NCBI RefSeq assembly: GCF_044324785.1
Contig: NZ_CP172127.1
Reading direction: 5' to 3' (one strand)
DNA: 64,000 nucleotides
From: Escherichia coli
GTDB lineage: Bacteria; Pseudomonadota; Gammaproteobacteria; Enterobacterales; Enterobacteriaceae
Shown: one piece after another, positions 39,524-40,200 of the stretch
Layout: each line of letters opens with the position of its first letter
Numbering within the stretch: position 1 is the first letter of the stretch
Position numbers and translations under genes: made by a program
The notes under the pieces: model-generated
Told to the model about the DNA's origin: nothing
The model's input: the letters and a program-made list of their open reading frames with translations, nothing else
Databases searched by the model: none

Positions 39524-39697
39524 GTGTTTTTAATTATTTTGAGTGTGATAATTTCTGGTGGATTGTTATTTATTGACCGCTACAAATATTTTCTTAACCC
39601 TCAGACTCAAGCTATTTGCTGGTTCATCTTTGTTGTGCAGGGAGTAGTTCTTGTTGCAAGCCTTATTGAGGGGAGGCCTCTTATTTTTACTGGGTAA
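39524..39697 (+). CDS. possible small hydrophobic protein (57 aa, GTG start)
   Basis: Hand-translated VFLIILSVIISGGLLFIDRYKYFLNPQTQAICWFIFVVQGVVLVASLIEGRPLIFTG; preceded by AAGGAAG; not in the track. Confidence 0.25.
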   Translation: MFLIILSVIISGGLLFIDRYKYFLNPQTQAICWFIFVVQGVVLVASLIEGRPLIFTG

Positions 39698-39710
39698 ATT
39701 AGGTGACTAC

Positions 39711-40007
39711 ATGCAAGCTATAGGATTCATTGTTTATATCGTCGTTGGTCTTTTTCAGTTGGCAGCAATTATGGCTGGGCTTGAATCATGGTGGGGATTG
39801 CACTGGATAATTGCAGCCCCCATTGCTTTCATCGTGAGCTATATTCCATTTGTTGGAGCGATTGTTGGTATGGTTGGCGCTGTGGATGTATGGCGGTGGG
39901 AGTGGTGGCAGGCTGGCCTTCTCTTCTTTGGTGGGATCATCTTTGCTATTGTCTGCGGTGGAATGTCATCATTTTTCGAATGGCTATCATTCAGAAAAGG
40001 GACGTGA
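39711..40007 (+). CDS. small integral membrane protein (~3 TM helices), moron
   Basis: MQAIGFIVYIVVGLFQLAAIMAGLESWWGLHWIIAAPIAFIVSYIPFVGAIVGMVGAV...; stop codon lies inside the GTGACATGTCAC palindrome. Confidence 0.5.
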   Translation: MQAIGFIVYIVVGLFQLAAIMAGLESWWGLHWIIAAPIAFIVSYIPFVGAIVGMVGAVDVWRWEWWQAGLLFFGGIIFAIVCGGMSSFFEWLSFRKGT

Positions 40008-40015
40008 CATGTCAC
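40004..40015. repeat. 12-bp perfect palindrome GTGACATGTCAC (copy 3)
   Basis: Exact; overlaps the TGA stop of the 39711 gene; a terminator follows immediately. Confidence 0.9.
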
Positions 40016-40040
40016 AGGCCGCTTTCGCGGCCTTGTTTTT
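40016..40040 (+). terminator. rho-independent terminator
   Basis: AGGCCGC-TTTC-GCGGCCT followed by TGTTTTT. Confidence 0.65.
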
Positions 40041-40200
40041 AACGAATGCCACCGCCGCCTGGGCGGGAATCCGCAGAACGCCCACCGCAGCGTGAGCCGT
40101 CAGCAGCAGTGTCGCTGTCGTGCTGACAACGACCGGCAAAGGCCTGAGTTGAAGCTACCAGAGACAACAAAACGAACAGTGCAGCAAATGCTTTTTTCAT
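40039..40200 (-). CDS. possible small secreted peptide (53 aa) with N-terminal signal peptide
   Basis: MKKAFAALFVLLSLVASTQAFA | GRCQHDSDTAADGSRCGGRSADSRPGGGGIR; two Cys in the mature part; possible promoter TTGACG-N17-TATAGA upstream. Confidence 0.3.
   Translation of the reverse strand: MKKAFAALFVLLSLVASTQAFAGRCQHDSDTAADGSRCGGRSADSRPGGGGIR

Follow-up and report, generated by a model that had tools for sequence, protein, structure and literature searches.

Small exported phage proteins that block the entry of superinfecting phages, and thereby protect the cell that expresses them, include T4 Spackle (Sp), P1 Sim and T5 Llp/phi80 Cor. In P22, a Lederbergvirus, the superinfection exclusion protein SieA has 164 residues and several membrane spans, and its gene has its own promoter and runs convergent to gene 16, in the order gene 16, sieA, mnt-arc-sar-ant and gene 9. 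SieA is reported to disturb ejection-conduit assembly in the inner membrane; escape mutations map to the ejection proteins gp16 and gp20, and three SieA sequence types, which are <30% identical, behave alike (Leavitt et al., PMC10461980). HK97 gp15, a classic moron, and T4 Imm are small inner-membrane proteins that block DNA entry (PMC10461980). Here, we analyzed a 64,000-nucleotide stretch of an Escherichia coli genome (GCF_044324785.1, contig NZ_CP172127.1; hereafter, the window), which contains a prophage with three small open reading frames (ORFs) behind its last ejection-protein gene: ORF A (39524–39697, plus strand), ORF B (39711–40007, plus strand) and ORF C (40039–40200, minus strand). 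A, B and C are new, uncharacterized prophage cargo genes for envelope proteins, of a kind that is already known. The best explanation for the region is that it is an accessory (cargo) slot, kept by epsilon15-type temperate podoviruses at the end of the ejection-protein operon, and that A, B and C are unrelated, independently exchanged genes for cell-envelope proteins. By sequence comparison, they are three small conserved genes in a swap-prone position.

A preliminary description of this DNA had likened the prophage to P22-like phages. This was not borne out: the prophage is epsilon15/phiV10-like (Uetakevirus), with segments common to phiV10, ZX5 and others. Over the A/B/C region it is 99.5% identical to Escherichia phage phiv142-3 (Uetakevirus), and 142 complete E. 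coli genomes carry the same kilobase. On the other hand, the three ORFs, the palindrome GTGACATGTCAC (40004–40015) and the terminator behind B all lay where that description had put them, and the positional equivalence that it had drawn to sieA of P22 held as synteny with the sieA-immI region, between the last ejection gene and the antirepressor region or tailspike. It was also fair to place the ORFs after the last ejection-protein gene, since the upstream gene (37040–39514, plus strand), the last of the structural operon, encodes an 824-residue gp17-like internal virion (ejection) protein (phrog_684, E=0); epsilon15 gp17 was placed in the T7 internal virion protein D family by Hardies et al. 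(PMC4819975). The basic order in epsilon15 is gp17, the small gp18, the palindrome with a terminator, convergent gp19, regulatory sites and the tailspike. In the window, the order is gp17, A, B, convergent C, a unit composed of a LexA box, C4 RNA, isrK and a Bro-N antirepressor, and the tailspike.

We evaluated whether the three ORFs are genes at all. A opens with GTG behind the Shine-Dalgarno sequence AAGGAAG, and its start lies 10 nt past the gp17 stop codon in every case. Klebsiella phage BUCT711 retains the same 57-codon frame (with a TTG start) at 80% nucleotide identity, with the Shine-Dalgarno sequence kept, and the ratio of nonsynonymous to synonymous substitution (dN/dS) for this pair was 0.19 in frame versus 1.4–2.0 in the other frames. 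The A homologs form 13 protein clusters of 56–58 residues, in Escherichia, Citrobacter, Klebsiella, Salmonella and Enterobacter. Their alignment, together with the hydropathy and charge profile, revealed two hydrophobic helices linked by an invariant basic loop (DRYKYFL), and A is predicted to be a two-span inner-membrane protein. What had been listed as a possible 57-residue hydrophobic peptide with a GTG start is thus a real gene, although it matched no PHROG family. B opens with ATG behind AGGTGA; its position and three helices were as first described, and its length is 98 residues. The 118-residue, TTG-start version of B in the phiv142-3 annotation is wrong, since all homologs start with MQAIG or MNxIG. 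Compared with BUCT711, the dN/dS of B was 0.02, with 45 of the 52 differences at third codon positions, and 52 close homologs were found, the lowest identity being 48%. In the 25-codon core of C (57 homolog clusters), the proportion of synonymous differences was 0.4–0.8 in nine of ten pairs, against nonsynonymous proportions of 0.02–0.13. Since the synonymous sites are near saturation, the constraint acts on the peptide, not on the DNA.

Several features would suit one or more chance open frames: all three ORFs are short and match no family with a known function, A uses GTG, and PGAP does not call A in RefSeq genomes. Nevertheless, their length and sequence are conserved across genera, as are the ribosome-binding sites, and neither the in-frame dN/dS values of A and B nor the almost fixed C peptide amid near-saturated synonymous differences fits such an origin. 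The comparative data already refute this explanation, to which we give a negligible chance, and show purifying selection on A, B and C, each of which is a real gene.

The slot behind gp17 has a different content in different relatives. It holds gp18 (64 residues, two transmembrane (TM) segments) in epsilon15, p21 (46 residues, two TM segments) in phiV10, and either a 66-residue two-TM protein or B directly, after a 1-nt gap, in Cronobacter. In Salmonella, A is followed by a 128-residue lipoprotein (L031, 4418–4804); in Klebsiella, a Rap1a-like periplasmic protein of the type VI secretion system (T6SS)-immunity type occurs with a secreted 134-residue protein (L014, 5711–6094 and 5238–5642); and another relative carries a secreted 123-residue protein and B. 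All of these occupants are membrane, lipo- or periplasmic proteins, in agreement with the earlier proposal that small envelope-protein genes reside here. A two-TM mini-protein stands at this spot in all of the Uetakeviruses examined, with unrelated sequences: epsilon15 gp18 (phrog_29212) and phiV10 p21 (phrog_7892) share with A the position, a similar size, two hydrophobic helices and the GTGACATGTCAC palindrome and terminator that follow, but their sequences are unrelated to A. The Cronobacter cargo region also contains a HicA/HicB toxin-antitoxin pair (L006, 6362–6820).

Two hallmarks of morons, presence or absence between collinear genomes and deviant base composition, were found. phiV10 lacks B and retains only the end of C, Cronobacter has B without the neighbors of C, and Salmonella has A and C without B. 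The GC contents of A, B and the mature part of C are 36.8%, 46.5% and 67.7%, respectively, as compared to 50.7% for the structural operon; the base composition of A is foreign. As for the third hallmark, a promoter with a terminator, C has flanking hairpins and promoter-like boxes (in silico), whereas for A/B a terminator but no conserved promoter was found. The preliminary description had treated the genes as one cluster, but the combinations of A, B and C differ among relatives, revealing three independently exchanged modules. Accordingly, A and B as a fixed pair was rejected, in view of the Cronobacter and Salmonella arrangements.

C encodes a 53-residue pre-peptide. Its signal peptide (residues 1–22, 40135–40200) consists of MKK, AFAALFVLLSLVA with a 13-residue hydrophobic core, and TQAFA, followed by G, in line with Sec (signal peptidase I) substrates, which have a basic n-region, a hydrophobic core of 7–15 residues and small residues at −3 and −1. 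The earlier proposal of a signal sequence with cleavage after AFA was supported by the homologs, in which position −1 is almost always Ala and A, S or V occupies position −3, with drift at the remaining signal-peptide positions. The mature part comprises 31 residues (GRCQHDSDTAADGSRCGGRSADSRPGGGGIR, 3.06 kDa) and is hydrophilic, with two Cys residues 12 residues apart and 16 invariant columns among the homologs (C25, D30, A32, G35-S36-R37-C38, G40-R41-S42 and D44 to G49). C is therefore predicted to be exported by Sec; cleavage after AFA would leave a soluble peptide of 31 residues in the periplasm, closed into a loop by a Cys25–Cys38 disulfide. A lipoprotein was rejected, because the lipobox [LVI][ASTVI][GAS]C is absent and FAG-R/N-C has an extra residue before the Cys; a single Cronobacter variant reads YAAC. 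C matched phrog_14503 over its full length (E=2.3e-40, residues 1–53), a 'membrane associated protein' family of the moron category, and in all it matched three PHROG families, none annotated as exclusion. Homologs of C are named 'transmembrane anchored protein' in NCBI records; the 'anchor' is most likely the cleaved signal peptide. P22 orf59a was rejected as a relative of C, as it has no signal peptide and no similarity.

The distribution of C points to a unit that moves by itself. C was present in 432 of 5,426 complete E. coli genomes (8%), and A with B in 215 of these 5,426; among 50,697 isolated-phage records, C occurred in 12 and B in 7. In Uetakevirus-type prophages of E. coli, Klebsiella and Cronobacter, C is the last opposite-strand gene, convergent to the ejection operon. 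It is also convergent in TL-2011b, EC.W1-9 and ST512-KPC3phi13.3, where the last large late-strand genes that face it differ in size, and in Pectobacterium it stands alone between tail genes. The DNA common to the window and TL-2011b is restricted to 40003–40316, from hairpin to hairpin, with unrelated proteins on the adjacent sides, and the same hairpin-to-hairpin unit occurs in EC.W1-9 with different neighbors. In phiV10 (L003, 5309–5330), only the final codons of C (GGGGIR and the stop) remain beside the terminator; this remnant is the scar of a deletion that took C and two genes beyond it, D and E. The left edge of the cassette is a two-way terminator hairpin (40278–40294), which separates C from the antirepressor operon. 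The leader of C (40201–40271, minus strand) contains a promoter-like arrangement, found in silico, of TGGACG (40271–40266), a 16-nt spacer and TGnTACACT (−10 box, 40249–40244). All six sequences compared (five distinct contexts) have a TAnnnT box in one and the same alignment column, and a 5-bp hairpin at 40221–40236 has two compensatory pairs. An alternative promoter, TTGACG-16-TATAGA, was dropped, since it overlaps this conserved hairpin and the other contexts do not preserve it. By these signals, C is a self-contained, separate cassette on the opposite strand, bounded by two hairpins.

B, in turn, is not an invention of phages but belongs to a large family of membrane proteins that has no name. 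It matched phrog_3075, a family of unknown function, over its full length (E=1.6e-54, residues 1–98) and carries the family motif (G13, Q16, A19 … Y44-x-P46-x-x-G49 … W61-x-W63-x-W65-x-Q67-A68 … L71-F72-F73). The AlphaFold model of B (predicted local distance difference test score (pLDDT) 90.4) has helices at 2–28, 32–42/46–59, with a kink at P46, and 65–97, and together with the hydropathy and charge profiles it supports the earlier characterization of A and B as strongly hydrophobic helical membrane proteins. The aromatic-rich junctions ESWWG and VWRWEWWQ and the basic C-terminal tail suggest an N-out, C-in topology, and B is predicted to be a three-span inner-membrane protein of this orientation. 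In a profile search of 1.84 billion representatives, the wider family comprised 748 clusters at E≤1e-3 and 325 at E≤1e-10. The family has no Pfam model and consists mostly of stand-alone proteins of about 100 residues; many members are fused to extra membrane segments, DUF805, RDD or MORN repeats (DUF805 in 3 of the 29 fusion proteins scanned), and in some bacteria the domain is in tandem, with four copies in one representative (P0117). The fusions were dropped as a functional lead, because the partners DUF805, RDD and MORN have an unknown or unrelated role. A Foldseek search of AFDB50 with the B model returned family members from many phyla, all uncharacterized or with generic automatic names.

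The genomic contexts of B are diverse. It follows a gp17 homolog (833 residues) in a distant Salmonella prophage, in which the gp17 pair is 26% identical over the full length. A 70%-identical B lies in the terminal cargo region of a lambdoid prophage, by DinI and DUF2335 genes and the host pepN, and another family member occurs beside RecT, SSB and RepL in an early region that is phage-plasmid-like. On the basis of the latter two contexts, a tie between B and gp17 was rejected.

These contexts bear on when A and B are made. There is no terminator between gp17 and A. The hairpin behind B (40016–40033; 7-bp stem, six GC pairs), followed by a T run (TGTTTTT; terminator 40016–40040, plus strand), agrees with the terminator noted earlier; it is conserved in phiV10, epsilon15, and the Klebsiella and Cronobacter relatives, and it appears to close the late structural transcript. 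An 8-of-12 promoter-like site inside A is common to the Klebsiella phage, but lies in conserved coding sequence. With neither a terminator nor a convincing promoter between gp17 and A/B, the two genes look like the distal end of the late transcript, and their ribosome-binding sites, judged from the sequence, are good and directly behind gp17. A and B could accordingly be late lytic-cycle helpers, made with the virion proteins and not expressed from the prophage, which might protect the membrane from the phage's own ejection proteins, time lysis in a holin/antiholin-like manner or exclude late secondary infections. A starts 10 nt and the B homolog of Cronobacter 1 nt behind gp17, and epsilon15 gp18 overlaps it; this spacing suggests co-translation with gp17, and the recurrent two-TM mini-protein at this spot would also fit. 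In addition, B resembles class I holins in its three spans and N-out/C-in orientation, and its top Pfam match was Phage_holin_5_2 (Hol44 family). However, this weak hint is not significant (E=0.027), and the prophage has a complete lysis cassette of its own, including two holin-type genes, 5.4 kb off, past the tailspike; B as a holin was thus rejected. The 3′ end of phiV10 gp17 is ~99% identical to that of the gp17 in the window and yet is followed by an unrelated protein, which means that there is no co-evolution with gp17. The foreign GC content of A and the presence of B in non-late contexts likewise speak against late helpers, which would moreover leave C unexplained. Altogether, we consider late helpers distinctly unlikely.

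We next compared A, B and C with the known exclusion systems. SieA is the best precedent for an exclusion role, by analogy. Like the slot genes, sieA encodes an envelope protein and is swapped between relatives for other, unrelated sequence types, and the position matches. The geometry, however, is that of C and not of the membrane proteins A and B to which the analogy had been applied: sieA is convergent to gene 16 and lies by the antirepressor region, as C is convergent to gp17-A-B, whereas A and B are on the late strand with no detectable promoter. The products also differ, since SieA spans the membrane several times and C is predicted to be a cleaved soluble peptide. Judged by their descriptions, Spackle, Sim and Llp/Cor have in common with C a signal peptide and a small exported product, although C is much smaller (31 residues when mature) and is not a lipoprotein. 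HK97 gp15 and T4 Imm resemble A and B in being small helical proteins of the inner membrane whose genes lie among or behind virion genes, but HK97 gp15 has its own promoter and terminator, and no PHROG, Pfam or PADLOC link between either protein and A or B was found. None of A, B and C matched a SieA-type or exclusion-annotated PHROG family.

From these comparisons, A, B and C may act by envelope-level interference with the delivery of incoming phage DNA, a proposal to which we give somewhat less than an even chance. It draws on the position, the all-envelope content of the slot, its frequent non-homologous replacement, the foreign composition, the SieA precedent and the absence of the O-antigen-modifying genes of epsilon15/phiV10. 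The lysogen would produce C, and C would bind some conserved component of the periplasm or membrane on which the ejected proteins depend. A and B would be expressed along with the late genes, or from a weak promoter that has escaped detection, and would interfere with the ejection conduit as it assembles in the inner membrane. As an assignment, superinfection exclusion is a conjecture rather than a result, made plausible by the position and the precedent.

Several observations weigh against this proposal. No promoter-like site is conserved among the window, Klebsiella and Salmonella versions of A/B, which weakens the case for expression in the lysogen; A and B may be silent there. The B family occurs mostly outside the gp17 context (in the lambdoid cargo region, the early region and fusions), and this breadth would favor a general membrane role over an ejection-protein-specific one. 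SieA and B showed no similarity (BLASTP E=20; hhalign with the B alignment, probability 0.4%). NCBIfam and PADLOC gave no match for A, B, C, D, E or the antirepressor, Pfam gave nothing significant for B, C and D, and the B and C profiles matched nothing among the PDB sequences. AlphaFold modeled C as a signal helix with a low-confidence loop, the mature part having a pLDDT of 40–60 and no confident fold. From Escherichia to Pectobacterium/Dickeya, and across at least four phage backbones, the 25-residue two-cysteine core of C hardly varies; this near-invariance suggests a conserved host target and fits a role in host physiology equally well. Finally, no functional work on A, B or C was found in the literature on the NCBI name of C, epsilon15 gp18 and Uetakevirus exclusion.

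The conserved core leads to a further explanation, that the genes are lysogenic-conversion or host-fitness cargo, unrelated to phage exclusion, which alters the stress tolerance, competition or virulence of the lysogen. C would then be a periplasmic effector peptide that binds a conserved part of the host envelope, such as a protease, a sensor kinase, an enzyme of peptidoglycan or a metal, and B would serve membrane homeostasis in general. The frequency of C among complete E. coli genomes, the spread of the B family outside the slot in fusions to other bacterial membrane domains, and the Rap1a-like protein in the Klebsiella slot are consistent with such roles. The whole phiv142-3 prophage and its orf10, which lies in D, have been reported to raise serum resistance and colonization in avian pathogenic E. 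coli (PMC7724020). That study mutated orf6, orf10, orf24, orf40 and orf41 (PMC7724020). Its list of serum-induced genes did not include orf11 (C) and orf12 (B), a result that counts against host fitness as well as against exclusion (PMC7724020). Also against host fitness, the position and the convergent orientation agree with those of sieA, and the seeming tie of A/B to late transcription is odd for lysogen fitness factors. We regard host-fitness cargo as possible, but on the unlikely side.

A more far-reaching version would join these threads. C might represent a new kind of effector, a Sec-exported, disulfide-looped peptide of ~30 residues, whose core CQHDSDTAADGSRCGGRSADSRPGG is fixed across Enterobacterales and which binds a conserved periplasmic or inner-membrane machine, either blocking the delivery of DNA across the envelope by many podoviruses, as a miniature Spackle-like protein, or reprogramming a host sensor in an MgrB-like manner. 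B would be the first handle on an unnamed three-TM family, and GTGACATGTCAC a 3′-end control element. This combination is speculative, and we put its chance as slim. Envelope-acting cargo genes of temperate phages decide which phages infect a lysogen, and are therefore relevant to phage therapy and prophage-driven strain competition. Prophages of this common family, in E. coli, Klebsiella, Salmonella and Cronobacter, have the slot at a well-defined place that has been refilled again and again. If the exclusion proposal is true, it would provide new exclusion proteins and the first function for a large unnamed membrane-protein family; at present, A, B and C are well-supported hypothetical genes and candidate exclusion factors, not a discovery. 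All three are short and easily cloned, with clear predictions of location and processing, and hence cheap to test, and C is the most attractive of them for experiments.

The palindrome GTGACATGTCAC at 40004–40015 contains the stop codon of B (TGA, 40005–40007), as had been noticed before. Exact copies occur three times in the window, all in the prophage (20196–20207, 22461–22472 and 40004–40015), whereas 0.18 would be expected by chance, and a one-mismatch copy lies at 25485–25496. epsilon15 also has three copies (39612, 2142 and 19517), at the same three junctions as in the window, and the linear phiV10 record has two; all of the Uetakevirus-type loci examined have a copy at the gp17-end junction. 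Each copy marks the 3′ end of a plus-strand transcription unit, at most about 50 nt from a terminator, and twice it holds the stop codon of the last gene (a gp49-like regulator, and B or epsilon15 gp18). The palindrome is thus a conserved three-copy element of epsilon15-type phages, and not a chance feature of the B stop codon. We rejected it as a repressor operator, since the sites annotated in epsilon15 are ATTACC-N5-GGTAAT.

The minus-strand unit beyond C contains full-length Rfam matches to a C4 antisense RNA (41762–41849, 78.6 bits) and the Hfq-binding RNA isrK (41868–41944, 74.7 bits), both on the minus strand, between a gp19-like gene (42024–42281, minus strand) and the Bro-N antirepressor. 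Just upstream of the gp19-like gene is a consensus LexA box, CTGTATAAATATACAG (42303–42318), which is the same in epsilon15, and an ATCACC-N5-GGTAAT site (42357–42373) that resembles the epsilon15 repressor operator also precedes this gene. The LexA box suggests that the gp19/C4-isrK/antirepressor operon is under SOS control, and the combination of C4, isrK, Bro-N and the LexA box identifies the region as an immI-type antirepressor module. In position, it corresponds to mnt-arc-sar-ant of P22. It resembles immI of P1/P7 (c4 antisense RNA and ant) and the isrK loci of the Salmonella Gifsy phages; it is a neighbor of C, which a strong terminator cuts off from it.

Downstream of the antirepressor are D (40293–40733, minus strand; 146 residues, 36% GC, phrog_5954) and E (40754–40921, minus strand; 55 residues, phrog_8607). 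For the D fragment that corresponds to phiv142-3 orf10, a 17-fold induction in serum has been reported, together with an increase in serum resistance (PMC7724020). D as a YafO-type toxin was rejected: the TL-2011b neighbor at the same place is annotated so, but is unrelated (E=1.5). At 45233–45454, the tailspike gene is directly followed by the lysis cassette, with no O-antigen acetyltransferase, polymerase or gtr gene there, whereas epsilon15 and phiV10 carry O-antigen-modifying genes next to the tailspike and use them for exclusion; the prophage therefore lacks the seroconversion-based exclusion of the family at that position. Beyond the lysis cassette, a transposase-family ORF of 330 residues (49370–50362, plus strand; phrog_3598, E=1.5e-172) is possibly an insertion sequence at the prophage edge, and is preceded by two minus-strand genes (47478–48551), one of which is DNA methyltransferase-like.

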